The notes: generated from the sequence alone by a model not told the origin. Numbered from the stretch's first letter, positions 43,400-61,843 are shown. The stretch: DNA of 64,000 bases from Methanotrichaceae archaeon (GCA_963803145.1 CAWDLW010000023.1:1-64000); one strand, 5' to 3'. Made by a program: numbers and translations.

Positions 43400-43565
43400 T
43401 TAAAACTCAGTTTCTAAACTCTCCTGATAAAAATCAACCTTGACAGGATCTGCAGAAGCTAGCTAACGATAAAGATATTAGAGGTCTGACAGTATTGTCA
43501 CGGTGGGATATTGTTGAGGCATACCTGATTGCTGATTGATAGCGTTTTCGGGATTATCAACCTAA

Positions 43566-44746
43566 CTATATAAGTTTCTCCTTTCCAATTTTTCGACTTT
43601 TTCCAATAATTTCCGCCTCAAGCGTCGGATCAAGCTTAAAAGCATTACTGGCCGCTACTATGAATTCTTCTTTGCGACCCAATTTAGCAAATATAATTGC
43701 TTTATTTACCCATGCTATTGCATTTTTTGGATTAAGTGCAATAGCTTTTTCAAATATAACTAATGCTTTTTCATAATTCTTTAATTCAAGTAGGGCAGCT
43801 CCCATATAATTCCATACATCTACATCGTTAGGATCCAATTCTATTCCCTTGTTAGATGCTTCCAAAGCTTCCGTATGCTTGTCGATCATACTGAAGGCAA
43901 GACATAAATTTTTCCATGCATCTTTCATCTTTGGATTAATTTCAGTTGCCCTTTGAAAAGATATTATACCCTCTTCGTATTTGCCTAATGTAGCTAAGGA
44001 TGAACCTTTATTAAGCCAGGCAAGTTCATTCCCAGAATCCAACTCTATGGCTTTTTCAGAAGCTTGCAAAGCTTCAGCATGCCTATAAAGGCCACCTAAT
44101 GCAGAACTTTTGTTAGTCCAAGCTATAGAATCCCTCGGATCTAATCTAATCGCTTTTTCTGCAGCTTTTAGAGCTTCTTTTGATTTACCTAATCGTTCTA
44201 ATGAATTACTCAAATTGCTCCAAGCCATAGCATTATTAGGATCAGATTTAACTGCCGTTTTATAAGCTTCCAGAGCATCTATATCGTTTCCTGTATCACT
44301 TAGCATTGAACCCTTAATAGTCCATAGCTGGGATTCCTTCGGGTCTAATTCTATTGCTCTGCTAACAGCTTTTAAAGCTTCCTCGTTTCTACCTAACTTG
44401 GCAAGAGCAGTACCTTTATTAGCCCAGGCCATGGCATTTCTGGAATCTAATCCTATAGCTTTTTCAGAAGCCTGCAAAGCTTCAGCATGCCTACCCAGGA
44501 TACCTAAAGCATAAGCTTTTTTATCCCATTCAAATTCATCATGAGACTCCGATTTAGCGGCATTCACTGACGGGTTCAGCCCTTCTGCAATTACACCAAA
44601 TGCAGAATCCATTCTTTCTAATTCTAGCGCAAATTCTTGATTTAATTCCATAGTTTTTTTAAAAGCTTCAAGCATTTCATTATTTTTATTGAAATAGTGC
44701 GCCGATAAAGCTAATAATCCCCAAGCTATAGAGAATTTGGGATCTA
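43566..44746 (-). pseudogene. TPR-repeat protein, 5'-truncated by IS630
   Basis: Repeated AW.NKG..L..LG..EEAL...KAI.LDP; TPR frame (IDPKFSIAW) continues to the IS junction. Confidence 0.8.
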
Positions 44747-45829
44747 TAGTTAATCCACGTAATTTTTACCTCATAGATACCCTTAAATAATTAATATACG
44801 ATATAGCCGTTCATGGGCAGGAAACCTGTAATTGTAAGACATATCTCGAAGGTAGAATTAGATCAATTGTATAAAGATGAGAGAAACATAAGAATTAAAG
44901 AACGGCTACTAGCGATAATACATTTATACGAAGGAAAGAATGTATATATAGTAGCTGATATTCTTAAACGAAGTGAAAAGACAATAAAGAATTGGCTAAG
45001 CGATTGGAACAAACAAGGATATGATGGATTGATACCACAGAATAGAAACGGCAAAGAACCAATGATATCTTTTGATGAATGGGATAAAATTATCGAAGAG
45101 ATTGAGGACAAAGGAATGACTATAAAAGAGGTAATAAAATATGCAAAAGACACAAGAGGCGTAGAATATTCGTATAAAGGTGGTTGGAAGATTTTAAGAT
45201 CAATAAAGAAAGTCAAATATGGTAAACCATATATTAGAAATAATAAGAGGCCTGTTAATGCAGAAAGTTTTCTAAAAAAAGGATAGATTCAGTAATAACA
45301 ACAGTCAAAGAACCTATTATTGGATTCCTTGATGAAAGCTCTTTGCAACAGCGACCTAATACACGCAGGGTTTTAAACACCCATATGCTAAATTATCAAC
45401 CTGGAAAAGTTAGGTCTAGAACTGTTTTTGGGTTCATTGCATTGAATGGAAATGATGAAGTTATGGTCTCTCACTCATCCAAGAAAGAAGATTTAATGAT
45501 CTTCGCCCAAAAATTGAGAAGTAACAATATTATGAGACCAATATGTATTGTCCTAGATAATGCTAGAATACATCTAGCTAAGAAGTTTAGGGCATTAGCC
45601 CACGAACTTGATATCCATTTAATATATAACGTGCCATATTCCCCTGATTTAAATCCTATAGAGTTCGGTTGGAAGGATTTTAAAAGAGAGATATCAAAAT
45701 ATACTGATTTTGATGAAGCTATTGAGGATGCCCAAGATTGCGCTTTACAAATATTTTATTCCAATAAAGATGGATACTCTAAGTCTTGGATAAAGCAGTT
45801 TATAAGGTAAAAAGTTGGGAGAATGACTA
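44747..45829 (+). mobile_element. IS630-family element, copy 1
   Basis: Imperfect TIR TAGTTAATCCACGTAATTTTTAC / GTAAAAAGTTGGGAGAATGACTA, TA on both sides. Confidence 0.9.
44813..45810 (+). CDS. IS630 transposase split in two frames (-1 slip at A7 run ~45274)
   Basis: HTH ORF 44813-45286; -1 frame carries FLDES, LDNA, YSPDLNPIE. Confidence 0.85.
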
Positions 45830-45881
45830 TAGTCATCCCAAACTCAGATCAGGATAAAGCTTTTGAACTGTAGCCTCTTGA

Positions 45882-45940
45882 AGCCCGCGCGGCGACTGAG
45901 CGCGCTATCGTCACCGTTAGTATTAGCCCCAGAAGGAAGT
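45882..45940 (+). repeat. Structured repeat copy A (3' half only; 5' leader 45830-45881 shared with copy E)
   Basis: agcccgcgcggcgactgagcgcgctatcgtcaccgttagtattagccccagaaggaagt. Confidence 0.9.
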
Positions 45941-45990
45941 GTCAGCTCTAAATACATTGGCTGGCCCAAATGTGAAGTCAAAACAGTTCC

Positions 45991-46489
45991 TTATTCTCCT
46001 GCAAGCTTCAGAACAGCTTTTCGTGTCTGCTTCGCCAGGCGAAAGCCTAATTCCTGGAGCCTATCGATAGATGGTTCAACTGCTTCCAGGTGCCCCGCAC
46101 GTTTTGCATCCAGCAGTAATCCCAGTGTACCTCTAATAGGTATTCCTTTTGCAGTGGCAATGCGCCGAGCCAGCGCATCATCCAGAAGCGGGAGGGCTTC
46201 CCGGCATTTCAAGCGCCAGCATCAGTACCTGGGATTCACCAGGTCCGAGATCTGTTATTAGGGGCTCTGCTTTTGCGCTGACAGGCACTTGGATCTTGAC
46301 CCAGCTTAGATTCTCCAGCTTTGGCAGGTCTAATCCTTTTGCGATGCCTGCATCCAGTTCAGCTCGGACGGAAGGAGGGACAATAATAGATCCAACAAGG
46401 GCTGGAAGAATCCTCAATTGACCTATCTGATGCAGATATTGCAGTGGCGATGTATTGCAGATGACCTTGGGCAGGGCTTTTTTAGGCAA
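45991..46489 (-). pseudogene. DUF3368-type PIN toxin, frameshifted
   Basis: VICNTSPLQYL...LGPGE in one frame, LLDDALARR..GTLGLL in the next. Confidence 0.85.
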
Positions 46490-46733
46490 GGCTGGTCTCC
46501 GCCTTGAGATCTTCTTCCGTCAAGCGGAAAGTGTCCACGCCATACTTTGCCAGGTTAGCCAAGAATATCGTTCGTGGAACTCCTGCCAGCTTTGCAGCTG
46601 CACCCGAGGATAATTTTCCAAGTTCAAAGAGCTTTACAGCAGCAGCTAATCTCAACTCCTTTCCGAGTTCATCCGGAGACATCTTCATCGCTAACAAGGC
46701 ATCATCCGGAACTTGCAAGACTATCTCGCTCAT
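46482..46733 (-). CDS. UPF0175-family antitoxin
   Basis: AVKLFELGKLSSGAAAKLAGV; overlaps toxin start. Confidence 0.85.
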   Translation of the reverse strand: MSEIVLQVPDDALLAMKMSPDELGKELRLAAAVKLFELGKLSSGAAAKLAGVPRTIFLANLAKYGVDTFRLTEEDLKAETSLA

Positions 46734-46858
46734 ACGATCTAATCTCTTTTCATTGCTATTGTATTTTTGCATCTAGCTTTGTGGTTGATAGTTCATCCTT
46801 TGTTTATAATTACAGCCTGATATCCGACAAATGCAGAATAGTTTATCCTGTCTCAGTT

Positions 46859-46965
46859 AACCTTGTCGGCTGTTTCGAGAGACTTCCCCCAGCGAGGGGT
46901 TAGGGGCAGCCCGCGCGGCGATTGAGCGCGCTAGTAAACCGCTAGTGTTAGCCCCAGAAGGAAGT
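46859..46965 (+). repeat. Structured repeat copy B
   Basis: aacct...acttcccccagcgaggggttaggggcagcccgcgcggcgattgagcgcgctagtaaaccgctagtgttagccccagaaggaagt. Confidence 0.92.
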
Positions 46966-47218
46966 ATAAGGATCTTGAATTGTCATAGGCCATAGGAAAG
47001 ATTGAAATGTGCGTTGTCTTAGGTGAACGAGCACTTTCTGAAGAAGAGATTATATAGATAGGGATTATTTATTGTATCAAAGTTATAGGCGAGGCTGTAA
47101 ATCCTAATCGAAGCATATAATTACTAAATAGTGTGCAATAAAGGCATTTGCTGAGAAAATCACATTATGGTCATTGGTGTCCACCAAACACAATGGCTCA
47201 GAGTTTAAGCGAGGCCTC

Positions 47219-47404
47219 TCAAGGATTCTCGCTTTTCTCTGATAATCTCTTTCGAAGAATAAGCCTAGCACCTTCTTCAAATACGTGTGAAATATTTCTA
47301 AATTCACCAGCAGCTACGGCCTCTTCAGCTGCTTTATACGTTTCAGGGCTTATACTAACGCTGAATTTTTTTGTGGGCATCGCTAAAAACAATGCTGCGC
47401 CCAT
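47219..47404 (-). CDS. Ribbon-helix-helix (CopG-like) protein
   Basis: KKFSVSISPE...GEFRNISHVFEEG. Confidence 0.75.
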   Translation of the reverse strand: MGAALFLAMPTKKFSVSISPETYKAAEEAVAAGEFRNISHVFEEGARLILRKRLSEKSENP

Positions 47405-47480
47405 CTAAATAGTTTTCTCACCGAGTATTACCAACAACCTTAAATAGAAATATGACCAGGTATTATTTTGGTGGACATCA

Positions 47481-47705
47481 ATGAATGGAAAGACCCATCT
47501 AGAGGAAGCTATCCTTGTCTCTCAGATCAGGGAATCAATTGCACAGAAGTTGATTGGAAAGTATTCAACAACTTTTCTATACAGGATCGAAATTATCTGG
47601 CCCTGTTCAATATTAATCCAGATCGTTGAAAATAGTTTTCTGAATACCCTAACGACGAATGTCCTAGGCTCCTCTCAGGATATTCCAGAAGCAGAGGCGG
47701 TCTAA
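47481..47705 (+). CDS. Hypothetical protein
   Basis: GGTGG SD-like motif upstream; stop abuts next ATG; no family recognised. Confidence 0.35.
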   Translation: MNGKTHLEEAILVSQIRESIAQKLIGKYSTTFLYRIEIIWPCSILIQIVENSFLNTLTTNVLGSSQDIPEAEAV

Positions 47706-48284
47706 ATGCCCTCCCCAAACAATCCCGAAAGCGCCGTTCCGCTAGCAATCGATCCAGCAACCACATCCATATTATCAGAGCTGACCACATCACTAGCCGA
47801 ACTTCAGCCCCTCGCCCCCAAGATCGCCGATCTGAAAAATGAAACCCTGGAAAAAGAAGCCGCAATCCTGAAAGCAATCCTGGAGAAGCTCACGCATCTG
47901 GTGCCTCTGCTGAGCGAAGACTGCGAGCAATGTTACCGCCGTGAGATTGTCATCCTGACCGATGAGGAGAGAGTTCAGCTTGATGATTTTGGCTTTTTCA
48001 GCGAGCACAGGCTGATTCTCTACGAGAACGGCCTGCTGGTGAGGACTCACCGCTATGGCCAATCTATGGATCATGGCCAATCAATGGAAGCTTCACACGT
48101 AGGATGGGAGAACACCGATGAGGATGTGCTTACTCCTGAGGCGGCTATAATCGCATTCGGTTTCACGGCCATTTCACAGGGCTTGACAAAGGCTCTTGAA
48201 GAGGCATCATCGATGGCTGCACTCAAAGAGATGCTTGAAGAAGATGTAGCGGCTTTAACTAAGGCATTGGAGGCTCTATTATAG
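47706..48284 (+). CDS. Hypothetical protein (paralog of 54491-55075)
   Basis: 192-aa ORF conserved in two copies, CEQC motif, helical termini. Confidence 0.8.
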   Translation: MPSPNNPESAVPLAIDPATTSILSELTTSLAELQPLAPKIADLKNETLEKEAAILKAILEKLTHLVPLLSEDCEQCYRREIVILTDEERVQLDDFGFFSEHRLILYENGLLVRTHRYGQSMDHGQSMEASHVGWENTDEDVLTPEAAIIAFGFTAISQGLTKALEEASSMAALKEMLEEDVAALTKALEALL

Positions 48285-48496
48285 GCAGCTGCTGACCTGA
48301 TGGCAGGAACCACAAGCATTCGATTGCATCGAGCGAGACCGTCCATAGCTAATAGTAATTGCCTCCACTCGAAAGCTTCAAAATTTTAGCGTTCTCATAG
48401 GCCGCATCATACATCTCAGCTTGATCATATTCTCATACTTGCAAAATCATTATATGGGTTGAATGGGATAAATGGGTAAAAGAGTTGATTGAAAGG

Positions 48497-48760
48497 ATGC
48501 CGCTTGCCAAAATGGATGACCGGGGGAGGCTGCAGCTTCCCAGCGACCTAAGGCATAAAATGAAGCTCAAAGAGGGCGACGAATTTGTTGCAGAGAAGCT
48601 TGGAGAGGATACGATTCTTCTAAAGAAGATTAACATAAGAGCACTGCTGGAAGATGCAATAGAAAAGGCTAAATCCGTAGATCTTGACAAGCTGGAAAAA
48701 GAGATTGAGGAGGAAAGCAACCAGCTTGCCCGAAAGATGTACAAGGTATCTTCTAGATAA
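48497..48760 (+). CDS. AbrB/MazE-family antitoxin
   Basis: AKMDDRGRLQLPSDLRHKMKLKEGDE. Confidence 0.88.
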   Translation: MPLAKMDDRGRLQLPSDLRHKMKLKEGDEFVAEKLGEDTILLKKINIRALLEDAIEKAKSVDLDKLEKEIEEESNQLARKMYKVSSR

Positions 48761-49166
48761 TACCCTCTTTATTGCCGCAGTCAAGAAGGGCTGGACTAAG
48801 AGCACTGAACTAATCTATACTCTTCTAGATAGCCCAGTGGAATTATTTGCCAATAAGCTCCTTATTTTCGAATACGAGAAATATGCCAGCGCCCTTCATA
48901 CCTATGAACTTTTAGAGCACTTGAAGAAGACTATGATTTTGGTAAATCCTTCTCAGGAAGAAGTCGATGTATGTGCAGCGTTCTTTCCTGAAAACGAGCT
49001 ATCGGATATAGTTCACGCAGCTACTTGTCTTTCAGTTGGTGCAATCCTAATCACCAATGATAACCATTTCAATAAAATTAAAGAAGCTAGGTTGATTGAG
49101 GCCTGGAGCATGACAAAGGCGATAAAGCGGCTTCTAGGAGAAGATAAGGATTATGAAGACAATTAG
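48726..49166 (+). CDS. PIN-domain (VapC-like) toxin
   Basis: YLLDNT, EY, DIVHAATC, LITNDNHF. Confidence 0.85.
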   Translation: MPERCTRYLLDNTLFIAAVKKGWTKSTELIYTLLDSPVELFANKLLIFEYEKYASALHTYELLEHLKKTMILVNPSQEEVDVCAAFFPENELSDIVHAATCLSVGAILITNDNHFNKIKEARLIEAWSMTKAIKRLLGEDKDYEDN

Positions 49167-49188
49167 CACATGATAGTTCTTGAAACAT

Positions 49189-49440
49189 TTAGGCAAGGCT
49201 TGCCTCCGCCTTGAGATCTTCTTCCGTTAGGCGAAAAGTATCCACGCCATAGTTTGCCAGGCTGGCCAGGAATATCGTTCGTGGAACTCCTGCAAGCTTT
49301 GCAGCCGCACCGGAGGATAGTTTTCCAAGTTCAAAGAGCTTTGCAGCTGCAGCTAATCTCAACTCCTTTCCGAACTCGTCTGGAGACATCTTCATAGCCA
49401 ATAAGGCATCATCCGGAACTTGTAAGACTATCTCGCTCAT
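49189..49440 (-). CDS. UPF0175-family antitoxin, orphan copy
   Basis: Near-identical to 46482-46733; partner toxin absent after TTGCCTAAA. Confidence 0.82.
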   Translation of the reverse strand: MSEIVLQVPDDALLAMKMSPDEFGKELRLAAAAKLFELGKLSSGAAAKLAGVPRTIFLASLANYGVDTFRLTEEDLKAEASLA

Positions 49441-49560
49441 ACGATCTAACCTCTCTTTATGGCTATTGTATTTTTGCATATAGCTTTGTGGTTGATAGTT
49501 CATCTTTTGTTTAACAGCCAGATATCCTACAAATACAGAACCGCCCATCAGGTCTCTGTT

Positions 49561-49668
49561 AACCTAATTGCCTGTTTCGAGAGACTTCCCCCAGCGAGGG
49601 GTTAGGGGTAGCCCGCGCAGCGACTGAGCGCGCTATCGTCACCGTTAGTATTACCCTCAGAAGGAAGT
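49561..49668 (+). repeat. Structured repeat copy C
   Basis: Full copy with ggggta/taccct variant. Confidence 0.92.
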
Positions 49669-49932
49669 ATAATGCTTTTGAATTTAATAGCAGACCTAAG
49701 CACTGAACCAATTAGCACTGAACCAATTATTCCATGATCGATCGTAAGAGAAGCCCATCAGGGTGAATATAGTAAATGAATGCGGACTAAGGAAGATGAT
49801 TTGGGATTAAGTACTTAGTGAGACGGTAGCCATAAGATAATGCAATCAGATAGATCTGAGGTATATTAGTACTCTTACTGAGGCATAATAAATGCAGCAA
49901 TCTCTTCATCCCTGAAGGCAACTATAATTCCG

Positions 49933-50234
49933 ATGGATAAATTCGAAGCCCTGAGAGAAAAAGTGCTAGTTAGCTCAGGCCATACGTTAAACGCAATTGC
50001 CGTTTTCGGCTCCTTCGCCCGAGATGAAGAGACCCGAAGAGAGCGATATAGATCTAATGGTCGAGCTGAAGCCGCGAGAGCTGGCCCATGCTTGGGCTTG
50101 AAGTGTTTGGCCTGGAAGAAGAGCTGAGCCGAATCCTGGGCAGAGATGTAGAATTGGTGACAGAGCGGGCTCTTAGCCCTTATATAAAGCCGTATGCAGA
50201 GATGGATATGGTTATGCTCTATGAAGAAGGATGA
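49933..50234 (+). pseudogene. Minimal nucleotidyltransferase (MNT) antitoxin, frameshifted
   Basis: AVFGSFAR, DIDLMVE and LGRDVELVT spread over frames. Confidence 0.82.
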
Positions 50235-50265
50235 TTATGTATATCTTCGCCATATACTCGATTCA
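50221..50265 (+). pseudogene. HEPN/DUF86 N-terminal remnant
   Basis: MKKDDYVYLRHILDS overlapping MNT end, then truncated. Confidence 0.6.
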
Positions 50266-50422
50266 GGCTTAGAATGGGTCGACCCATTTCCATCGATTGG
50301 CGGGGCTTCGATTACGGTCTCCATAGGGCCGGTTTCGATTGTCTAAGCTCATCATCATAACAAGGTTATCATAGAACATTTTCACCTAGACTTTAAATAA
50401 TAAGAATCCATAGGTAGTATCT

Positions 50423-50605
50423 ATGTGTGAGAGTTTGGAGCGCAAGACTATAACTCCCCAACTTCCCTACGATCAGGAAGAGCCAGGTGAGGATGAGGAG
50501 ATCACCCTTGCACTTATGAAGCTCTCAGCTCTATCACTGCAGGATTTCTTAGAGAGCGAACCAGATATCTATACGGACGATGATCTTAAAGTCAGATACC
50601 GATGA
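50423..50605 (+). CDS. Putative antitoxin
   Basis: Acidic tail LQDFLESEPDIYTDDDLK; ATGA overlap with MazF-like gene. Confidence 0.7.
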   Translation: MCESLERKTITPQLPYDQEEPGEDEEITLALMKLSALSLQDFLESEPDIYTDDDLKVRYR

Positions 50606-50949
50606 AAGGTGATATCGTCCTTGTTCCTTTCCCAAACTCCGATTTGAGTACATGGAAGCGTAGGCCAGCGTTAATCCTTTATGAAGATCTTATAGAAAAT
50701 GAGACTACAATTGCTTACGTATCATCGCGTATCCCTATAATCCCAGCTTCTAGCGATATTCTGATAACAAGAGGAACGCGGTCTTTTAATGAGTCTGGCT
50801 TAAAGTGGAACTCAGTTATAAAATTAAATAAGATAGCTGCTATTAAAACCCATTTTATTGCCGGATTGCTTGGTGTTGCGGATGAAACCTTGAAGGCTGA
50901 AGTTAATAGGGCATTGGATGCTTGCTTAAAGTTTCCAGCAAAATTGTAA
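50602..50949 (+). CDS. MazF/PemK-family toxin
   Basis: KGDIVLVPFPNSD...KRRPAL, GLKWNSVI. Confidence 0.88.
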   Translation: MKGDIVLVPFPNSDLSTWKRRPALILYEDLIENETTIAYVSSRIPIIPASSDILITRGTRSFNESGLKWNSVIKLNKIAAIKTHFIAGLLGVADETLKAEVNRALDACLKFPAKL

Positions 50950-50957
50950 GGTTCTAT

Positions 50958-51224
50958 TTAGCTCCGGGCATACTCCAGATCCACTTCCAGCTCCGTCTCT
51001 CCATAATGGCGCTTGATCTTACGATGACCTAGAAGTTCCTCGAATTGCAAGCGTGCCAAGCCACTCAGTGCTGCAGCTTTGCCGGAAGAAAGCACTCCAT
51101 GCTGGTAAAGAGCCAAAGCTAGCTCTTTGTAAAGCTCTGCTTCAACATCATCAGGGGGAACTCTGAGGGCGTTTGCTACGTCTTCGGGAATCTTCAATGT
51201 GGGGGCACCCATGAATTTATGCAC
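50958..51224 (-). CDS. UPF0175-family antitoxin (second subtype, orphan)
   Basis: ELALALYQHGVLSSGKAAALSGL. Confidence 0.82.
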   Translation of the reverse strand: MHKFMGAPTLKIPEDVANALRVPPDDVEAELYKELALALYQHGVLSSGKAAALSGLARLQFEELLGHRKIKRHYGETELEVDLEYARS

Positions 51225-51397
51225 CTCTTCATAATTCTCGCTCGGATTATTTTTTAAGCTTTGGGAACAATAATAACAAGATTGGATTCGACCTAGAGCT
51301 TTAAGTCGGATGTGACACGTAGAAGGGCGTTAAAATACGATGGAATCACCATCAATTCCGCCATAGACATAAGAATAATGAATACTGTTATTCTACT

Positions 51398-51784
51398 ATG
51401 AAAATCAAACTGACAAGTGTATTTGTAGACGACCAAGGCAAGGCTCTCAAGTTTTATACAGAGGTCTTGGGCTTTGTTAAGAAATCGGATGTTACAGCAG
51501 GGAAATACAGATGGTTAACGGTTGTTTCGCCTGAAGAGCAAGACGGTGCCCAGTTACTTCTTGAGCCTAAGGATAATCCTGCGGCAAAATCCTACCAGGA
51601 ATCTATTTTCAAGCAAGGTATTCCCGCCGCTATGTTCTTCGTTGATGATATTCAGAAAGAGTATCAGAGACTGAAGAGACTTGGAGTGAAATTCACAATG
51701 GAGCCGACAAAAACACCCGGCTCGACTATTGTCGTGTTTGATGATACCAGCGGAAACCTGATACAGTTAGCTCAGCTTGGGTAG
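51398..51784 (+). CDS. VOC/glyoxalase family protein
   Basis: VDDQGKALKFYTEVLGF, FFVDDI, DDTSGNLIQL. Confidence 0.9.
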   Translation: MKIKLTSVFVDDQGKALKFYTEVLGFVKKSDVTAGKYRWLTVVSPEEQDGAQLLLEPKDNPAAKSYQESIFKQGIPAAMFFVDDIQKEYQRLKRLGVKFTMEPTKTPGSTIVVFDDTSGNLIQLAQLG

Positions 51785-51893
51785 GATTTCACAGATAACG
51801 TCAGCGTGACAAAGTTGATCCTTTGAGGGTTATCAGTTTAGGCATTGCCGCAGCCGATCTATCCTGCAAATCAAGGGACCTGGGCAACGAAGA

Positions 51894-52127
51894 CTAGACG
51901 AGATAGGAACCGATAACAAATTCATGTAGAGTATATTTCCCTTTTTCGCTTTCAAAGGGAATAATCAGGTATTTTCATTTTTCAATTCTCTCGATGTATC
52001 CTCGCTTCTCCAATCTTGTGAGCATTATTTTCAATGTGCTTTTATCAATCCGAGTCTTTTGATACATTTGGTCAATTGAAAATATCTTGCTCCCTTTTGC
52101 CATAGATTTGAGATCCTTAATAGCCAT
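51894..52127 (-). pseudogene. AbiEi-like (type IV TA antitoxin) N-terminal remnant
   Basis: KIFSIDQ...LTRLEKRGYIERIEK*KYLIIP...KGKYTLHEFVIGSYLV*; internal stop at 51975-51977. Confidence 0.65.
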
Positions 52128-52240
52128 GCAACCCACTGTCTTGATTTTCCCCTTTAATACACCAAAGTTATCATAATGTTAATTTTGGTGTATACAAGGG
52201 GGAATCTTGTGAATTCAAATGAATATAACTCCTCTCAATC

Positions 52241-52350
52241 AACCTAATAGCACGCGTTTTCGAAACCTTCCCCCAGCGAGGGGTTAGGGGTAACCTGCCC
52301 GGCGACTGAGGGCGCTAGTAAAACCCCTAGTGTTAGCCCCGGAAGAAATT
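52241..52350 (+). repeat. Structured repeat copy D
   Basis: Full copy with gccc/gggc compensatory inner stem. Confidence 0.9.
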
Positions 52351-52422
52351 GCAAGGCTTCTAAGATATATTAGTCAGCCCAAACTCAGATCAGAATAAAG
52401 CTTTTGAACTGTAGCCGCTTGA

Positions 52423-52481
52423 AGCCAGCGCGGCGATTGAGCGCGCTATCGTCACCGTCAGTTTTAGCCCCAGAAGGAAGT
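52423..52481 (+). repeat. Structured repeat copy E (3' half; leader 52371-52422 matches 45830-45881)
   Basis: agccagcgcggcgattgagcgcgctatcgtcaccgtcagttttagccccagaaggaagt. Confidence 0.9.
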
Positions 52482-52751
52482 TTATTGCCTTTGAATTTAA
52501 TAGCAGGCCCAAGCACTGAACTAATTTTTCCACGATCGATCGTAAGAGAAGGTCATCAATGTGAATATAGTAAATGAACGCGGACTAAGGAAGATGTTTT
52601 GGGATTGAGTACTGAGTGAGACGATAGCTATACGGTAATGCAAATTTAAGTAGATAGAATGCAAGCAGATAGATCAGAGGTATATCAGCACTCTTACTGA
52701 GGCGCAACAAATGCAGCAATTTCTTCATTCCTGAAGGCAACTATAATTCCG

Positions 52752-53062
52752 ATGGATAAATTCGAAGCCCTAAGAGAAAAAGTGCTGCCTTTGCTCAGGC
52801 CATACGTTAAACGCAATTGCCGTTTTCGGCTCCTTCGCCCGAGGTGATGAGACTCCAGAGCGATATAGATCTAATGGTTGAGCTGAAGCCGCGAGAGCAG
52901 CGCCCATGCTTGGGCTTGAAGTGGTTTGGCCTGGAAGAAGAGTTGAGCCGAATACTGGGCAGAGATGTAGAATTGGTGACAGAGGGCGCTCTTAGCCCTT
53001 ATATAAAACCGTATTCAGAGAGGAATATGGTTATGCTCTATGAAGAGCCTCAAAGCTTTTAG
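52752..53062 (+). pseudogene. MNT antitoxin, frameshifted second copy
   Basis: Homologous to 49933-50234, including ~250 bp upstream. Confidence 0.82.
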
Positions 53063-53168
53063 CGTTCTCATAGGCCGTATCATACAGCTCAGCCTGATCT
53101 TATTCTCATGCCCTGCAAAATCGTTATATGGGATGAATGGGTTAAATGGGTAATGGAGTGATTGAAGA

Positions 53169-53432
53169 ATGCCGCTCGCCAAAATGGATGATCGCGGGAG
53201 GTTGCAGCTTCCCAGCGATCTGAGGCATAAGATGAAGCTCAAAGAGGGCGACGAATTTGTTGCAGAGAAGCTTGGAGAGGATACGATTATCCTTAAAAAG
53301 ATTAACATAAGAGCGCTGCTTGAAGATGCGATAGAAAAGGCTAAATTCGTGGATCTTGACAAGCTGGAAAAAGAGATCGAGGAGGAGAGCAACCAGCTTG
53401 CCCGAAAGATGTACAAGGTATCTTCTAGATAA
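53169..53432 (+). CDS. AbrB/MazE-family antitoxin, copy 2
   Basis: Near-identical to 48497-48760. Confidence 0.88.
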   Translation: MPLAKMDDRGRLQLPSDLRHKMKLKEGDEFVAEKLGEDTIILKKINIRALLEDAIEKAKFVDLDKLEKEIEEESNQLARKMYKVSSR

Positions 53433-53838
53433 CACCCTCTTTATTGCTGCTGTCAAGAAGGGATGGACTAAGAGCACTGAGCTTGTCTATGCTCTTCTAG
53501 ATAGCCCAGTAGAATTATTCGCCAATAAGCTCCTTATTTTCGAATACGAGAAATATGCCAGCGCCCTTCATACCTATGATCTCTTGAATCACTTGAAGAG
53601 GACTATGATTTTGGTCAATCCTTCTCAGGAAGAAGTCGATGCATGTGCAGCGTTCTTTCCTGAAAACGAGCTATCTGACATAGTTCACGCAGCTACTTGT
53701 CTTTCAGTTGGTGCAATCCTAATCACCAATGATAACCATTTCAATAGGATTAGAGAAGCTAGGTTGATCGAGGTCTGGAGCATGACAAAGGCGATAAAGC
53801 GGCTTTTAGAAGATGATAAAGATTTTGAAGATAGTTAA
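53398..53838 (+). CDS. PIN-domain toxin, copy 2
   Basis: Near-identical to 48726-49166. Confidence 0.85.
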   Translation: MPERCTRYLLDNTLFIAAVKKGWTKSTELVYALLDSPVELFANKLLIFEYEKYASALHTYDLLNHLKRTMILVNPSQEEVDACAAFFPENELSDIVHAATCLSVGAILITNDNHFNRIREARLIEVWSMTKAIKRLLEDDKDFEDS

Positions 53839-53930
53839 GTATACGATTGCCCTTGAGATGATTTCTTTATCCGATACAGTTTCTTATTCTGTTATAATTC
53901 TATGAGCCAAATCGTCCATCTGCCTCAATC

Positions 53931-54040
53931 AACCTTATAGCATGCGTTTTCAAAACCTTCCCCCAGCGAGGGGTTAGGGGCAGCCCGCGCGGCGACTGAG
54001 CGCGCTAGTAAACCGCTAGTATTAGCCCCAGAAAGTAAGT
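53931..54040 (+). repeat. Structured repeat copy F
   Basis: Full copy. Confidence 0.92.
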
Positions 54041-54137
54041 ATGAGGCCCTTGAATCATTGGACCCGATATGGTTATCTTTAAGAGCGACAAAAATTTTAT
54101 TGCATCTCAACTCACCAAGAAGAGATGCAGGGTGGGC

Positions 54138-54320
54138 TTATGCCTGCCCTTTAAACTTGACACCATGCTTTTCCAAATATTCGCGTATCGCCTTCTCTGC
54201 AACCTCTGAAACTCCTCTCATTTGCCCTGTAGATTCGAAGGCGAATTTTCTCAACGCCGCGGCCACTTCTGGTGATAACGATATATTCATTTTAGTTGGC
54301 GTTTTTCTCTCAGGCTCCAT
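54138..54320 (-). CDS. Ribbon-helix-helix protein
   Basis: TKMNISLSPEVAAALRK...VSEVAEKAIREYL. Confidence 0.78.
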   Translation of the reverse strand: MEPERKTPTKMNISLSPEVAAALRKFAFESTGQMRGVSEVAEKAIREYLEKHGVKFKGQA

Positions 54321-54490
54321 GCTTGTTATATGTCTAAATCTTTAACTATTAACCTTTTATCATATTAAGCCACTTAGGAAGAAAAAGAGTTAAATATCTT
54401 ACTCTCCTATTAGGTCATTGGTGAGTTGAGATGATTGGAAGAACAATTTTTGAGAGCGGTTTAGAGACCTTAGCATCGGAGGCGGTCTAA

Positions 54491-55075
54491 ATGCCCTCCC
54501 TACTCCACCCCGAAAACTCCGTCCAGACAGCAGCCGATCCAATAGACACAATAGCGACCGATCCAGCAACCACATCCATGTTATCAGAGCTGACTGCATC
54601 ACTAGCCGAACTTTGGCCCCTCACCTTCAATATCATCGATCTGCAAAAGCAAACCCTGGAGAAAGAAGCCTCCATCCTAAAAGCAATCGTGGAGAAGGCC
54701 ACGCCTCTGGTGCCTCTGCTGTGTGAAGACTGTGAGCAATGTTACCGCCGTGAGATTGTCATCCTGGCCAGAGAGGAGAGAGTGCAGCTTGATGATTTCG
54801 GCTTTTTCAGCGAGCACAGGCTGATTCTCTACGAGAACGGCCTGCTGGCAAGAACTCATCGCTATGGCCAATCAATGAAAGATCTGAATTTTGGATGTGA
54901 GAACACCGATGAGGATGTGCTTACACCTGAGTCTGCTATAACCACATTCGGCTTCACGGCAATTTCAAAGGGCTTGATGAGGATTCTTGGAGATGCGTCA
55001 TCGATGGCTGTACTCAAAGAGGAGCTAGAAGGCAGGCTTGCGGCTTTAGCTGAGGCATTGGAGGCTCTACGATAA
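54491..55075 (+). CDS. Hypothetical protein (paralog of 47706-48284)
   Basis: GGAGG SD; colinear homology. Confidence 0.8.
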   Translation: MPSLLHPENSVQTAADPIDTIATDPATTSMLSELTASLAELWPLTFNIIDLQKQTLEKEASILKAIVEKATPLVPLLCEDCEQCYRREIVILAREERVQLDDFGFFSEHRLILYENGLLARTHRYGQSMKDLNFGCENTDEDVLTPESAITTFGFTAISKGLMRILGDASSMAVLKEELEGRLAALAEALEALR

Positions 55076-55101
55076 AGGGATTAGCTAATCTTATTTTATT
55101 C

Positions 55102-55212
55102 AACCTTACAGCATATATTTTCCCGAACCTTCTCCCGAAAAGGGGCTGGGGGTTGCTCGCATGGCGACTAAGCGCGCTAGAATAACCGTTAGTATTAGCC
55201 CCAGAAGAAAAT
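55102..55212 (+). repeat. Structured repeat copy G (diverged)
   Basis: aacct...ccttctcccgaaaaggggctgggggttgctcgcatggcgactaagcgcgctagaataaccgttagtattagccccagaag. Confidence 0.85.
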
Positions 55213-55381
55213 GCAGTCTCTCTAATTACAATGAATTTAGCCAAAAGCAAAGTTAGAGACATTCTTTTATGTATACTCTTGAATTTAAATTTCTTGAAGA
55301 ACGCTATCTTTTGCCTGTTGCTCACATGCCGGGAAGTTCCAATAGCATCAATCTGGATGAACCGGCAATGGTTCGATGCCT

Positions 55382-55880
55382 TTATTCTCCTGCAAGCTTC
55401 AGAACAGCTTCTCGTGTCTGCTTCGCCAGGCGGAAGCCTAATTCCTGGAGCCTATCAATAGATGGTTCAACTGCTTCCAGGTGCCCCGCACGTTTTGCAT
55501 CCAGCAATAATCCCAGTGTACCTCTAATAGGTATTACTTTTGCAGTGGCAATGCGCCGAGCCAGTGCATCATCCAGAAGCGGGAGGGCTTCCCGGCATTT
55601 CAAGCGCCAGCATCAGTACCTGGGATTCACCAGGTCCGAGATCTGTTATTAGGGGCTCTGCTTTTGCGCTGACAGGCACTTGGATCTTGACCCAGCTTAG
55701 ATTCTCCAGCTTTGGCAGGTCTAATCCTTTTGCGATGCCTGCATCCAGTTCAGCTCGGACGGAAGGAGGGACAATAATAGATCCAACAAGGGCTGGAAGA
55801 ATCCTCAATTGACCTATCTGATGCAGATATTGCAGTGGCGATGTATTGCAGATGACCTTGGGCAGGGCTTTTTTAGGCAA
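55382..55880 (-). pseudogene. DUF3368-type PIN toxin, frameshifted, copy 2
   Basis: Near-identical to 45991-46489 with the same frameshift. Confidence 0.85.
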
Positions 55881-56124
55881 GGCTTGCCTCCGCCTTGAGA
55901 TCTTCTTCCGTTAGGCGAAAAGTATCCACGCCATAGTTCGCCAGGCTGGCCAGGAATACCGTTCGTGGAACTCCTGCCAGCTTTGCAGCTGCACCGGAGG
56001 ATAATTTTCCAAGTTCAAAGAGCTTTACAGCAGCAGCTAATCTCAACTCCTTTCCGAGTTCATCCGGAGACATCTTCATCGCTAACAAGGCATCATCCGG
56101 AACTTGCAAGACTATCTCGCTCAT
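55873..56124 (-). CDS. UPF0175-family antitoxin, copy 3
   Basis: Near-identical to 46482-46733. Confidence 0.85.
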   Translation of the reverse strand: MSEIVLQVPDDALLAMKMSPDELGKELRLAAAVKLFELGKLSSGAAAKLAGVPRTVFLASLANYGVDTFRLTEEDLKAEASLA

Positions 56125-56248
56125 ACGATCTAATCTTTCGTTATGGCTATTGTATTTTTGCATATAGCTTTGTGGTTGATAGTTCATCTTTTGTTTATAA
56201 TTACAGCCAGATATCATGCAAGTGCATAACCGCTCATTCAGTTACGTC

Positions 56249-56356
56249 AACCTTATCGCCTGTTTCGAGGGACTTCCCCGTAGAGGGGTTAGGGGCAGCC
56301 CGCGCGGCTTCTCTCGCGCGCTGGAATAGCCGTTAGTGTTAGCCCCAGAAGAAGGT
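56249..56356 (+). repeat. Structured repeat copy H
   Basis: Full copy; loops changed (gtaga, gcttctct) while stems are kept. Confidence 0.9.
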
Positions 56357-56440
56357 GAAGCTTTTGAATTATTTCATTCAGCTCCAAAAACAAAGTAAGG
56401 ACGATTCTCCAATACACTCTTGTGATCTCTTAGCCTGTGC

Positions 56441-56686
56441 TCATACTACCTTGAATGCCACGCCCACCGCCTGGAACTCTGATGTATCCTGGCGCTCAAG
56501 CTTCGATTTGATCCCCTCGAATCTCCTTACGGTCTCCTGAGAGTACAATCTCTCGCCGCACCTGAGACATACCTCGGCACATACTTTCAGGACCGCTGTA
56601 TTTACGCCGCCCCGAATTACCTTTTCTACTTCCTTCTCCACTAGACTACCGCCACAAACAGGGCATCTCTCGAAAGACGTCATCAT
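56441..56686 (-). CDS. YgiT-type zinc-finger protein
   Basis: CPVCGG...AEVCLRCGERLYS. Confidence 0.85.
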   Translation of the reverse strand: MMTSFERCPVCGGSLVEKEVEKVIRGGVNTAVLKVCAEVCLRCGERLYSQETVRRFEGIKSKLERQDTSEFQAVGVAFKVV

Positions 56687-56696
56687 TCAACCCTAT

Positions 56697-56752
56697 AGAT
56701 CCTCCTCCAGCTCCATTTCTCAATAATGGCACTAGATCTTATGATGACCTAC
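56697..56752 (-). pseudogene. 3' fragment of UPF0175 subtype-2 gene
   Basis: Resembles 50976-51031 (agatcc..tccagctcc..tct..ataatggc.ct.gatctta.gatgaccta). Confidence 0.55.
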
Positions 56753-56864
56753 ATGAATCGCTCCGAATACTTTTCACAGGCCGGAGTATATAAAGTCAAT
56801 CATTTCAAGATTATACGCAATTTGCGCAAAGTCTTTTATCATCTTCAATAGATAATCTGATAAT

Positions 56865-57059
56865 ATGGAGACAAAGGAATTGATTCATCGAGAGATCGAG
56901 GCTTTCCCTGAGCCCTATCTCGAAGAAGTGCTAGACTTTATACACTTTTTAAAGGATAAGGCAATGAAAAAGAGAATGGAAGCTGCGATTCTAAGTGAGT
57001 CAGTTCTTGCCAGGGATTGGCTGAGTCCAGAGGAGGATGAAGCTTGGAAAAATTTATAA
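56865..57059 (+). CDS. DUF2281-like antitoxin
   Basis: PEPYLEEVLDFIHFLK...SESVLARDWLSPEEDEAW. Confidence 0.82.
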   Translation: METKELIHREIEAFPEPYLEEVLDFIHFLKDKAMKKRMEAAILSESVLARDWLSPEEDEAWKNL

Positions 57060-57376
57060 AAGGAGATATAGTTGTACTTCCCTTTCCGTTCTCAGACTTG
57101 ACTGAGGCGAAAAGGCGTCCTGCTCTAGTACTCGCAGAACTTGATGGGACCGATAGAATTCTTTGCCAGATAACGAGCCAGAATTTCGAAGACAGATACG
57201 CTGTTTCAATAGATGAATTAGACTTCGAAGAGGGCTCCCTTAGAAAAAGAAGCAATGTTAGACCGAATCGAATATTCACTGCGGATAGCAAGATAATTCT
57301 GTATAAAGCAGGCCATATCAAATCCAGTAAGATAGATGAAGTCGTGAATAGAATAATCGAAATCTTGACCCGCTAA
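57044..57376 (+). CDS. MazF/PemK-family toxin
   Basis: KGDIVVLPFPFSDL..AKRRPALV, CQITS. Confidence 0.9.
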   Translation: MEKFIKGDIVVLPFPFSDLTEAKRRPALVLAELDGTDRILCQITSQNFEDRYAVSIDELDFEEGSLRKRSNVRPNRIFTADSKIILYKAGHIKSSKIDEVVNRIIEILTR

Positions 57377-57435
57377 TCTGCATTGCTGCTTTCCACGATC
57401 TCAATATCCTCATTCGCTATCTACATGTCCCACTC

Positions 57436-57546
57436 AACCTCGTAACCTGCATTTCGAAAATCCTCCCCCAGCGAGGGGTTAGGGGCAGCCTGCGCGGGCG
57501 TTGGAGCGCGCTATCGTCACCGTTAGTTTTAGCCCCAGAAGGAAGT
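57436..57546 (+). repeat. Structured repeat copy I
   Basis: Full copy. Confidence 0.9.
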
Positions 57547-57593
57547 GTTAGCTTTTAAATTATGTAATTAGCCATAATCCAAATCTGAGCGGA

Positions 57594-58037
57594 CTATGTA
57601 TCTGCTTGTATCTTCAGAAATTCCTCTATTGCATCTATAAACTGATCAAAATCGTCGATATTATCTATCAGGATGGAAAATGCAACTTTATCATCGATTT
57701 TTCCATACCTGTGAACAACTATATTTCTGAATCCCTTCATCTTTCGGATCTTACCACTAATCTCCTCAGTCAAAATACCTTTTTTTGCCAGGCTCTCCAC
57801 TATTCCTTCCTCACTCTCGGGCATCTCCAATCTCAGATCAGAGTTAATGATGGCGCAAATATCGATCACATTCTCGACTGCAAATTCTGCCCTCTTGTAG
57901 ATACCATCTTTAACTAGCCCTAGCCTTGAAAACTCCTCGAAGCTCTGTGGAAGATGAGATCTTACCAACTCTATGCTATCCTCTATCTCAGTCATCTTAT
58001 CTCTGATGAGATCAACTCTGAGGCCCTTCTTTCTCAT
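57594..58037 (-). CDS. HEPN/DUF86 (HepT-like) RNase toxin
   Basis: FRNIVVHRY Rx4H motif. Confidence 0.9.
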   Translation of the reverse strand: MRKKGLRVDLIRDKMTEIEDSIELVRSHLPQSFEEFSRLGLVKDGIYKRAEFAVENVIDICAIINSDLRLEMPESEEGIVESLAKKGILTEEISGKIRKMKGFRNIVVHRYGKIDDKVAFSILIDNIDDFDQFIDAIEEFLKIQADT

Positions 58038-58048
58038 TCTCCCCCCGC

Positions 58049-58438
58049 TTACCTTATTGCCTCCACACCAATATAATCATAATACCTGGGCTTGAAGGCT
58101 TCAAAATCCTTAATGGTCTCATATGCCTTATCGTACAGGAACTGCTTGCTATCGCAATACAGGATCTTTCCCTGCAGAACATCCCTCCTGAGATAAACGG
58201 GAAGCTGCTGGAAGATCTTGATGTCATAGATATCTTCGAACAGCTCCGAAAGAACCCTAAGCCTGAATTCGGAGGCATCCTCGCCCTCATAGTAAACACT
58301 GAGATCGATATCTGAGCCTTCTCTTATCCTGTCCTGTGAGGCTGAGCCGTAAAGAATTATAAAGCGAACTTTCTCGCGGCCGAGTTCTTTGATCTTCTGG
58401 ACGGCATGCTCAATTTTCTCGGATAGAAGTTGGCGAAT
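58049..58438 (-). CDS. MNT nucleotidyltransferase antitoxin (absent from ORF track; apparent ATT start)
   Basis: 129-aa open frame IRQLLSEK...IILYGSASQDRIREGSDIDLSVY...; GS-x10-DxD motif; ends 11 nt before HEPN. Confidence 0.85.
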   Translation of the reverse strand: MRQLLSEKIEHAVQKIKELGREKVRFIILYGSASQDRIREGSDIDLSVYYEGEDASEFRLRVLSELFEDIYDIKIFQQLPVYLRRDVLQGKILYCDSKQFLYDKAYETIKDFEAFKPRYYDYIGVEAIR

Positions 58439-58653
58439 AGGACGTCCCTCTCAGATTTATCGTTGTATGCAGTTCATAAGCTAGTTTAGCAAATTATTTG
58501 TGGCTATAGGTTTAAAGATATTTCGCCAATCGTCCAAAAAAATAGGCGAATTAGGAAGAACTTAAGGGTTAAAGTTTCAATAAAATTTTTAATGTCTCAA
58601 AAGTGCATTACTGAGTTTGGAGATAATCCATCAGCAGCGAGCAAGATTTCTTT

Positions 58654-58752
58654 GACAGGTCTAATCCTTTTGCAATGCCGGTATCCAGTTCAGCTTGGAC
58701 GGATGGAGGAACAATAATGGAATCAACAAGAGCTGGAAGAATCCTCAATTGA
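58654..58752 (-). pseudogene. Internal fragment of DUF3368 toxin gene
   Basis: Matches 46323-46421. Confidence 0.75.
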
Positions 58753-59032
58753 GGAAGTTCTTATAGCATGTTCAAGCTTCATCCTGGGTTGAAGAAACGC
58801 TATTGTGGGTGGAAATCTATGGCAAAACGGCAAATTCTTTCGATCTGTTGGAAATGTGACTGCTGATACAATCAAACACTATATTAAGGAATCTCAAGGG
58901 AAACAGAAAGCAGAGTTTCAATCGCGCAGATCAAGAGAATATGGACAACGAAGACTGGACGATTTCTGAATTCAAAAAAACTGGTCGTGCGGCCCGAAGC
59001 ATACCCCACCCTTTAGGGAGGTGGCCGCACGC
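58753..59032 (+). mobile_element. IS200-type (Y1 TnpA) remnant with right-end hairpin
   Basis: Frameshifted C-terminus GNLWQNGKFFRSVGNVTADTIKHYIKESQ; end hairpin gtgcggcc..ccacccttt-agggaggtggccgcac. Confidence 0.75.
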
Positions 59033-59141
59033 AGTTTTATTGATAACTGTTGCAAAGCATGACTATATAAAGAAATCATGTTGATAATGCATTAACATGA
59101 TCTGAAAGACAATTATATGTAAAATAAAAACAGGTGATAAA

Positions 59142-60761: not shown

Positions 60762-61843
60762 TAGTCAATTTTGCATCTAACTTCCTAATAGAAAACCTTA
60801 ATATTCAAGGCGTTAAATTATAGCTGATGGGAAGAAAACCTAAAGTCATAAAACATATCTCAAAAGAAGAGCTAGAAGACCTATATAGAAAAGAAAAAGA
60901 TCCAAGAATTAAAGAGAGGCTGTTAGCGATAATTCATCTTTATGAAAAGAAAAACATTTACGAAGTTCAGGACATTTTGAAAAAGAGCGATCGAACTATC
61001 AAGGATTGGTTAAGTAGATGGAATAATAAAGGCTATGAAGGACTAATACCAGGAAGCGGAGGTGGCGTTGAACCGAGGATACCTTCTCAGGAATGGGATA
61101 ATATTATTAAAGAGATTGAAGGTAAAGGGATGACTATCAGAGATGTTATGGTTTATGTCAAGACTACGAGAGGTGTAGACTATTCTTATAACACGACGTG
61201 GAAAATTTTAAGAGTGGATAAAGGAGTTAAGTATGGGAAACCCTATATTAAAAATGAGAAAAGACCAGAATATGCGGAAAAAATTTTAAAAAAGAATAGA
61301 TTGCGTGTTATCAACAGTCACTGATCCCATTGTGGGTTTTCTAGATGAGAGTTCATTGCAACAAAATCCCAATAAAAGACGAGTGATAAACACTCCTGTG
61401 ATAAAATATGATCAAGGCAGAAAGAGATCTAAGACTATATTCGGTTTTATGGCTATAAATGGCAACGATGCAGTCATGCTATCTGATTCGTCTAAGGCAG
61501 AAGATATGATTAGTTTTATCCAAGTAATAAGAACAGCTAACATTATGAAGCCAATATGTCTCCTGCTCGATAATGCAAAGATACATCTGGCAAAAACAGT
61601 TAGGATATTAGCTCAAGAATTGGATATCCACTTTATCTACTTGCCCCCATATTCGCCAGATTTGAATCCTATTGAGTTTGGATGGAAAGATTTGAAAAGA
61701 GATTTGAGTAAATTCCTTAATTTTGATGAGGCTATCGAAATGAGTGAAGAGTGTGCCCTAAAAATTATATATTTCAGGAAAGATGGATACTCTAGGCATG
61801 TGATAAATAAGGTTTTTAGTGAAGAAAGTTAGGAGATTGACTA
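60762..61843 (+). mobile_element. IS630-family element, copy 2 (diverged)
   Basis: TIR TAGTCAAT../..ATTGACTA, TA on both sides. Confidence 0.9.
60827..61832 (+). CDS. IS630 transposase split in two frames (slip at TTTTAAAAAAG ~61284)
   Basis: HTH ORF plus FLDES/LDNA/YSPDLNPIE ORF. Confidence 0.85.

Follow-up and report, generated by a model that had tools for sequence, protein, structure and literature searches.

A dispersed structured repeat borders re-assorted toxin-antitoxin modules in a Methanotrichaceae archaeon

Intergenic repeats of the repetitive extragenic palindrome (REP), bacterial interspersed mosaic element (BIME), REP doublet hairpin (REPIN) and enterobacterial repetitive intergenic consensus (ERIC) types are known recombination substrates, and the dif (pdif) modules of Acinetobacter plasmids use 28-bp XerC/XerD sites in alternating orientation. 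We have analysed 64,000 nucleotides of DNA from a Methanotrichaceae archaeon (GCA_963803145.1, CAWDLW010000023.1:1-64000; the window), in which positions 45830-57546 hold an array of toxin-antitoxin and other accessory genes punctuated by copies of a structured repeat. The described systems closest to this locus are integrons and clusters of attC sites lacking integron integrases (CALINs), which have been reported in Archaea as attC-based arrays (PMC9668308), together with the REP, BIME, REPIN and ERIC families of bacterial intergenic repeats (PMC2817692, PMC3116915). We find that the modules which the repeat bounds have been re-assorted, both inside the array and from one genome to another, that the homology breaks are located in the repeat, and that the repeats are fine-grained mosaics. 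A dispersed structured repeat with a CALIN-like cassette layout is a variation on known kinds of element.

The array contains seven full and two half copies of the repeat between 45881 and 57554, all on the + strand (nhmmer E 1e-14 to 7e-32; Table 1). With nine copies in 11.7 kb, and co-oriented sites less than 4 kb apart bounding cassettes, it has the layout by which CALINs are defined; that definition needs no IntI, and the missing integrase rules out a complete integron alone. The likeness to integrons and CALINs extends to the spacing of the co-oriented structured sites (~1-3 kb), their independence of gene orientation, a cargo rich in toxin-antitoxin and accessory genes, a cassette order that varies between relatives and the presence of many sites over many contigs. 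Nevertheless, unlike in integrons no IntI was found in the 99% complete genome, and unlike in either integrons or CALINs over half of the repeat loci are single copies and homology with the neighbours extends into both sides of the repeat. The initial annotation had described an integron-like array built on a non-attC site. The co-oriented sites and the toxin-antitoxin-rich cargo bear out the layout, but the site is not bound to arrays, having 121 matches in the genome at 55 loci, 31 of them single.

Comparison with the other systems gives a similarly mixed picture. High copy number, lineage specificity, structure and intergenic position are shared with the REP, BIME, REPIN and ERIC repeats. 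However, the repeat is ~115 nt with a three-way fold rather than a 20-40-nt palindrome as in REP, its arrays are co-oriented with mostly direct neighbours rather than the alternating doublets of BIMEs, and, unlike REPINs with their REP-associated tyrosine transposases (RAYTs), it flanks no RAYT-type gene and resides in an archaeal host. Small modules, often toxin-antitoxin pairs, lying between recombination sites in varied combinations also recall the pdif modules, from which the locus differs in its ~115-nt co-oriented chromosomal repeats. No description of such repeats in Methanothrix or Methanosaeta was found in the accessible literature, in which the 75 genomes of PMC9668308 might include the lineage.

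Five blocks are duplicated inside the array in the same orientation, and their order differs between the array halves: the modules run X, RW, Y, Z in 45991-50227 and Z, Y, RW, X in 52423-56351. A single tandem duplication with deletions, which had been put forward as a sufficient cause that would overturn the shuffling interpretation, cannot yield this pair of orders, and the unequal divergence among the module pairs, from 82 to 98%, indicates several events. As already remarked in the initial annotation, not every junction lies in a repeat, those at 53046 and 49166-49188 being outside.

Pieces of another array of this genome (G000), that on G000:C8, recur in the related genomes G001 and G002 in other orders. 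The cassette between repeats H and I is kept as a unit in G002:C4 (90%), where it is directly followed by the cassette that follows repeat B (module RW1; 85%). The repeat between the two is a hybrid, resembling I on its upstream side and B on its downstream side. Likewise, the YgiT cassette is found in four unrelated upstream contexts across three genomes. A collinear comparison of whole arrays between G000 and G002 was rejected since the two are too diverged and mosaic. Public sequencing runs all proved to be contigs of other samples, the best holding 12% of the sampled words. Most joints in them have sides of less than 30 nt at 88% likeness, possibly from other copies or organisms, so that a single record was used, number 11 of run X2 (side 126 nt). 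In this contig, which comes from another sample, YgiT is the first cassette behind a leader and half repeat. This brings the kinds of first cassette behind a leader and half repeat to three (DUF3368, MNT, YgiT).

The same pattern is seen more widely when flanks are compared. For 131 distinct full repeats (138 when duplicates from overlapping loci are counted), each taken with 500 nt on either side, 29 pairs share homology upstream alone, 42 downstream alone and one on both sides; 21 of the 42 downstream pairs result from one insertion sequence (IS) inserted in the repeat and 13 from the 3' extension, leaving 8 clean pairs. In one-flank pairs, identity is raised at model positions 3-34 for upstream pairs and from ~84 on for downstream pairs, with no sharp step. 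Crossover mapping from these pairs was rejected, 28 upstream and 8 clean downstream pairs being too few and non-independent.

The core of the repeat is ~115 nt long and is accompanied in many copies by a 5' extension of ~35-75 nt and a 3' extension of ~77-100 nt, giving a whole unit of ~230-290 nt. It folds as a first hairpin, H1 (CCCC/GGGG), followed by a closing stem GGGGC/GCCCC around H2, with its conserved loop GGCGAYTGA, and a variable H3. The predicted partners pair in 87.3% of 1807 cells, compared with 36-55% when the partners are slid, and none of 500 shuffles reached the observed covariation score. Two H2 pairs show 28 and 12 double changes. G-T wobbles outnumber A-C by 104 to 28 (the cells are not independent), and the + strand is therefore taken as the folding strand. 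An alternative closing helix, ACTTC/GAAGT, was rejected as it pairs in only 60% of cells. Read from the sequence, a T-run lies 3' of the core and a TTATAG-like motif ~25 nt before H1. To the eye the fold does not look like the R''-L''/L'-R' hairpin of an attC site: there are three local hairpins and two direct GTTAG boxes in place of inverted R'' (RYYYAAC) and R' (GTTRRRY) boxes, and the centre of the repeat is its most conserved rather than a variable part. The longest invariant stretches are short, about 13-24 nt, and no terminal inverted repeats were seen in the consensus. In the half copies the 3' extension is followed by model positions 48-115. The AGCC at which copies A and E had been noted to begin is indeed model position 48, behind a common leader (45830-45940 and 52371-52481, 94%), the left side of copy A being cut by an IS630-like insertion. 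The leader is not, however, the separate entity that it had been taken for but the usual ~77-nt 3' extension of the repeat unit. Two composite copies were also observed: G000:C8:500649-500875 consists of model positions 3-72, 102 unrelated nt and model positions 48-101, so that H2 is duplicated, and G000:C8:489722-489834 joins model positions 7-54 directly to 38-100.

A profile of the seven full copies, run by nhmmer over the 4.13-Mb genome, gave the 121 matches, 79 of them full length, and the 55 loci include five arrays of 6-12 copies, counting the present one. Neighbouring copies are co-oriented in 55 of 66 pairs, and repeat orientation is unrelated to that of the neighbouring genes; cumulative GC skew over six contigs is weak and bears no relation to it. 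An exact 24-nt core pattern occurs 41, 12 and 31 times in the genus's three genomes and never in the other 28 of 31 relatives, and the same pattern read backwards has no match in the 31 genomes, which excludes a repeat by chance. All 47 repeat stretches in the species collection come from four Methanotrichaceae archaeon metagenome-assembled genome (MAG) records. With a covariance model built from the 79 copies (E<=0.001), matches were found in 13 of the 61 genomes of the family, which represent 8 of its 16 genera: 46 to 60 or more per genome inside the genus, and 1-12 weaker matches each in 10 further genomes outside it. The distant copies retain H1, UUAGGGG and H2 with the loop GGCGAYUGA, with compensatory stem changes, and in the other genera the best copies sit between housekeeping-type genes.

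Several repeat subtypes had been proposed to travel in halves with their neighbouring modules, and this holds in part. Repeats B, C and H have their 5' subtype and UPF0175 module in common because the UPF0175 block extends into the repeat, and C and E have their 3' subtype and MNT module in common (49610-50227 and 52423-53046, 85%) because the MNT block begins inside the repeat. B and F do have the third hairpin in common, but the two downstream genes assigned as ribbon-helix-helix (RHH) are unrelated (BLASTP, nothing at E<=100). Further points speak against half-repeats travelling as such: the hairpin CTATCGTCACCG, found in A, C, E and I, precedes three different modules, repeats preceding YgiT cassettes have four different third hairpins, and the segments of the repeat are nearly independent. 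In the set of 131 copies, linkage is confined to the two sides of the H2 stem (z = 32), with neighbouring segments at z = 4-5 and most other pairs at z < 2.5; the repeats are therefore fine-grained mosaics. Thus, of the suggestion that cassettes are re-ordered by crossovers in the repeat centre, the re-ordering stands, but no crossover confined to the centre was resolved, segments being assorted across the whole repeat. Such independent assortment is more readily explained by gene conversion or homologous exchange than by a single cleavage point.

The explanation that we favour, with moderate confidence, is that a lineage-specific structured dispersed repeat serves as portable homology for general recombination and gene conversion. 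Copies are dispersed on the chromosome and accumulate, co-oriented, in islands of toxin-antitoxin and accessory genes, and each supplies 60-100 nt of near-identical sequence that could serve in this way. Through general homologous recombination, together with gene conversion over short tracts, pairs of copies would then allow modules of 1-3 kb to be deleted, duplicated and re-joined, within the genome or following DNA uptake from relatives, and the outcome would be new module orders and mosaic repeats. The exchange presumably depends on the general recombination machinery of the host, and the repeat itself probably functions primarily as a folded RNA or single-stranded DNA element.

A number of points weigh against this explanation. 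It assumes that homologous recombination is efficient with invariant stretches of 13-24 nt, and the exchange is read from assembled sequences rather than from direct sight of a recombination event. The shared modules are exactly reversed, with each half headed by a leader and half repeat, which plain homologous exchange does not predict; indeed, none of the mechanisms considered predicts the order X-RW-Y-Z / Z-Y-RW-X. Of the 24 possible orders of four modules, 2 would appear ordered by chance. The 5' truncations start at model positions 48-53 in 16 of 23 copies, which could mark a preferred break. Finally, gene-independent co-orientation and a strand-specific fold would also be expected from a site-specific system acting on the folded strand.

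Such a dedicated, integron-like system, in which the folded strand is the site for a putative recombinase acting in trans and the leader with half repeat is a hybrid head site arising from insertion at position 48, is possible but on the unlikely side. It would account for the co-orientation of sites (55 of 66 pairs), the covarying strand-specific fold, a toxin-antitoxin and accessory cargo like that of integron arrays, the recurrence of gene-plus-repeat units (W with a downstream repeat in 9 of 21 cases; UPF0175 with repeat), the three different first cassettes behind the leader and half repeat, the reversed module order behind two leaders and the clustering of truncations at 48-53 (16 of 23). 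However, at least 11 of the 16 half copies have one homologous leader and thus one origin, so that most of them descend from a single event. The integron integrase was not found in the genome itself: the best TIGR02249 score is 48.8 bits against a cut-off of 265, with no match above it. The direct GTTAG boxes and multi-branched fold look unlike attC by eye, single copies make up 31 of the 55 loci, housekeeping-type genes flank the copies in other genera, and segments assort independently along the whole repeat. Nor does a recombinase consistently accompany the arrays. None of the 13 PF00589 (tyrosine recombinase) matches lies in the window or regularly beside an array, and in seven other arrays (135 open reading frames (ORFs), 102 Pfam families) the only mobility genes among the 25 commonest families listed are IS transposases. 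The statement that no recombinase is in the window is accordingly right for tyrosine recombinases but overlooks the transposases of one IS1634-like and two IS630-like elements.

A more particular proposal, which we consider speculative and rather improbable, is an archaeal cassette platform free of IntI and attC, in which the folded strand (H1, G-run, H2) is recognized by a lineage-specific factor and capture takes place at the leader and half-site heads; this would explain both the position-48 half copies and the reversed order behind leaders. One candidate factor is W, an orphan protein family of ~190 aa with two members in the array (47706-48284, 192 aa; 54491-55075, 194 aa). W has 24 matches in this genome, 20 in G002 and one in each of two others, thus in four of 31 genomes, three of which belong to the repeat-rich genus. 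A repeat lies within 3 kb of 17 of 21 W genes, 37 of 38 repeats within that distance are co-oriented with the gene, and 9 of the 21 genes have a co-oriented repeat 37-143 nt downstream. The family has no match in Pfam, NCBIfam, PHROGs, PADLOC, PDB sequences or 39 distant relatives, and in the ESM Atlas falls in unnamed clusters alone. Its structural model (predicted local distance difference test, pLDDT, 75.7) has N-terminal helices, four strands and a long helix. The best Foldseek match is PURA (E 0.075, within noise) and the best VIA-align match Pur-alpha (Z 6.2, root-mean-square deviation 2.3 over 53 residues, below the tool's noise guidance). The modelled beta4-alpha core may thus faintly resemble PUR/RAD52-type single-strand binders.

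We also consider it doubtful that the repeat primarily encodes a small RNA or acts as an RNA regulatory element, with a weak TATA-like box, a structured transcript of ~90 nt and a T-run, the module shuffling being an incidental consequence. The strand-specific fold with G-U wobbles would suit this, as would the H2 loop GGCGAYUGA, conserved across genera on a co-varying stem and perhaps resembling a kink-turn pattern, and the T-run after the core together with the TTATAG-like motif ~25 nt before H1. On the other hand, the window has no Rfam match at gathering score and 45800-57700 none at E<=1, the TATA-like motif is poorly conserved (background identity 0.13-0.42 at model positions 3-12) and the orientation is unrelated to neighbouring genes. 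ARAGORN found no genes.

Quite unlikely, in our judgement, is a non-autonomous transposable element resembling REP or miniature inverted-repeat transposable elements (MITEs), the arrays being tolerant islands and the shared flanks duplications that end at copies. High copy number, intergenic location and lineage restriction agree with this, and so does presence or absence at orthologous sites: a G000:C17 copy occupies a site where G001 has an 88-nt spacer, and G001 has a ~290-nt unit at a site where G000:C48 has none. However, terminal inverted repeats were not seen, the three occupied/empty site comparisons gave neither a clean empty site nor a clean target-site duplication, G000 and G002 have two single copies in common at orthologous sites, and one pair of repeats with both flanks in common stands against 71 with one. 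Candidate RAYT-type transposases (PF01797; Y1) number five matches, namely three identical intact IS200/IS605-type copies and two pieces of one broken copy, none of which adjoins a repeat array. At one junction, in G001:C38 (L054 1237-1242; compare window 56172-56358), the UPF0175 gene lies immediately next to the YgiT region, with the repeat and ~75 nt upstream of it missing and AGCTTT present at both edges in G000. To judge by its sequence, this repeat-free junction looks like a microhomology deletion.

Least probable is an assembly artefact joining two strain haplotypes at D/E: each half begins with a leader and half repeat and has the modules X, RW, Y and Z once each, and the MAG (4.13 Mb, 99% complete, 6.77% contamination) exceeds its congeners (3.0-3.3 Mb), but 1,087-bp IS copies at 100% are resolved inside contigs, which argues for an assembly from long reads that presumably spanned the 115-nt repeat, the full repeat-leader-half repeat unit recurs in at least 8 other places, cassette order would still not be the same in the two haplotypes, and G001 and G002 give independent evidence of re-assortment.

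Table 1. Repeats, modules, duplicated blocks and mobile elements, in window coordinates unless a contig is given
Feature	Position	Strand	Remarks
Half copy A: leader (3' extension) and half repeat	45832-45947; half repeat 45881-45947	+	model 48-114
Repeat B, full	46860-46973	+	
Repeat C, full	49562-49676	+	
Repeat D, full	52244-52358	+	
Half copy E: 3' extension and half repeat	52359-52486; half repeat 52422-52486	+	model 48-112
Repeat F, full	53934-54048	+	
Repeat G, full	55105-55220	+	3' extension to about 55307
Repeat H, full	56250-56364	+	3' extension to about 56421
Repeat I, full	57439-57554	+	
Module X1	45991-46780	-	DUF3368/PIN-type gene split in two ORFs (45991-46212, 46178-46489); UPF0175 antitoxin-like (46482-46772)
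Module RW1	47104-48284		small ORF 47104-47307 (-); 74-aa ORF 47481-47705 (+); W gene 47706-48284 (+, 192 aa)
Module Y1	48374-49165	+	AbrB/MazE-like and PIN genes
UPF0175 gene without partner	49189-49548	-	joined to Y1 outside repeat
Module Z1	49677-50346	+	frameshifted MNT (nucleotidyltransferase) and truncated HepT start; frameshift read from sequence
Unique modules	50423-52136	mixed	
Unique modules: antitoxin-like ORF and PemK/MazF	50423-50949	+	
Unique modules: UPF0175	50958-51224	-	
Unique modules: glyoxalase	51398-51784	+	
Unique modules: MarR-like helix-turn-helix (HTH) fragment	51975-52136	-	
Modules Z2 and Y2	52487-53837	+	frameshifted MNT (Z2); AbrB-like and PIN (Y2); joined at 53046 outside repeat
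Module RW2	54138-55075		Arc-like small ORF 54138-54320 (-); W gene 54491-55075 (+, 194 aa)
Module X2	55382-56217	-	split DUF3368/PIN-type gene and UPF0175
H-I cassette	56441-57376		MqsA/YgiT-like (-); DUF2281/VapB-like antitoxin and PemK/MazF (+)
HepT and adjoining MNT-like ORF	57594-58400	-	array right end; HepT 57594-58037; MNT part read from sequence, without Pfam match
Block X	45991-46960 and 55382-56351		94%
Block UPF0175 and repeat			three copies, 87%
Block W	47743-48278 and 54552-55069		82%
Block Y	48374-49165 and 53046-53837		91%
Block Z	49610-50227 and 52423-53046		85%
IS1634-like transposase gene	41941-43386		
IS630-like IS	44745-45831	+	array left end; split transposase (44813-45810); inserted at TA in copy A leader
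IS630-like transposase	60827-61832		distant relative (69%) of left-end IS at 60827-61845
IS110-family element, example	G000:C8:490322-491878		L058:7322-8878; beyond window
IS110-family element, example	G000:C23:210257-211875		beyond window

The ORFs between the copies are chiefly parts of toxin-antitoxin systems. The neighbouring genes named in the initial annotation (DUF3368, UPF0175, PIN, AbrB/MazE, PemK/MazF, MqsA-like (YgiT), HepT and NTP_transf_2) were found as listed, but the 'AbiEi' assigned at D is only a 53-aa MarR-like HTH fragment. Several toxin genes appear decayed. The two MNT copies have one frameshift in common (49933-50227, 52760-53046), and each DUF3368/PIN copy is divided between two overlapping ORFs (45991-46489, 55382-55880). 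Since the lesions are the same in both members of each pair, the duplications probably copied MNT and DUF3368/PIN genes that were already broken, or programmed frameshifting may be involved. Beyond the last cassette, 103 nt at 58650-58752 match the interior of the DUF3368/PIN gene (46319-46421) at 89% identity and are what is left of another X module. At 58886-59041 lies an unrelated dispersed repeat of ~160 nt, with copies of 78-80% on C17, C23 (142 kb), C27 and C43.

The left-end IS630-like element has 8 copies at 100% elsewhere in the genome and a second group at ~77.7%. At four places G002 has sequence 98% identical to the IS1634-like stretch (41832-43408); this is far above the 74-90% of the flanking and cassette DNA and suggests a recent spread between species. 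In each of 7 inspected copies, a 1.56-kb IS110-family element (DEDD transposase) occupies one fixed position in the repeat, with GTTAGTTT on its left and TTTTAGCCCC on its right; the right junction was seen in 6 of the 7, the other running off its contig. Of 9 copies of the IS, 8 have a truncated repeat ~0.9 kb away. Elements of the IS1111/IS110 group are reported to target attC or REP sites (PMC11187229, PMC11208160), and the IS110-family ISPpu9 to target REP (10.1101/2025.01.17.633520). The use of a fixed repeat position is in keeping with this habit, but the likeness concerns an IS that targets the repeat and not the mechanism of cassette shuffling.

Archaeal accessory-gene islands are poorly understood, and integron-type capture in Archaea has been reported only recently. 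The structured repeat described here is easily searched for, and in this lineage of acetate-using methanogens it delimits the points of exchange of toxin-antitoxin and accessory modules. Should that exchange indeed proceed by homologous recombination, the locus would clearly exemplify, in Archaea, how dispersed repeats can supply portable homology for modular genome evolution; were it site-specific, the integron principle would have been invented independently a second time. In both cases the repeat, the orphan W family and the repeat-targeting IS110-family element are concrete objects for experiment.

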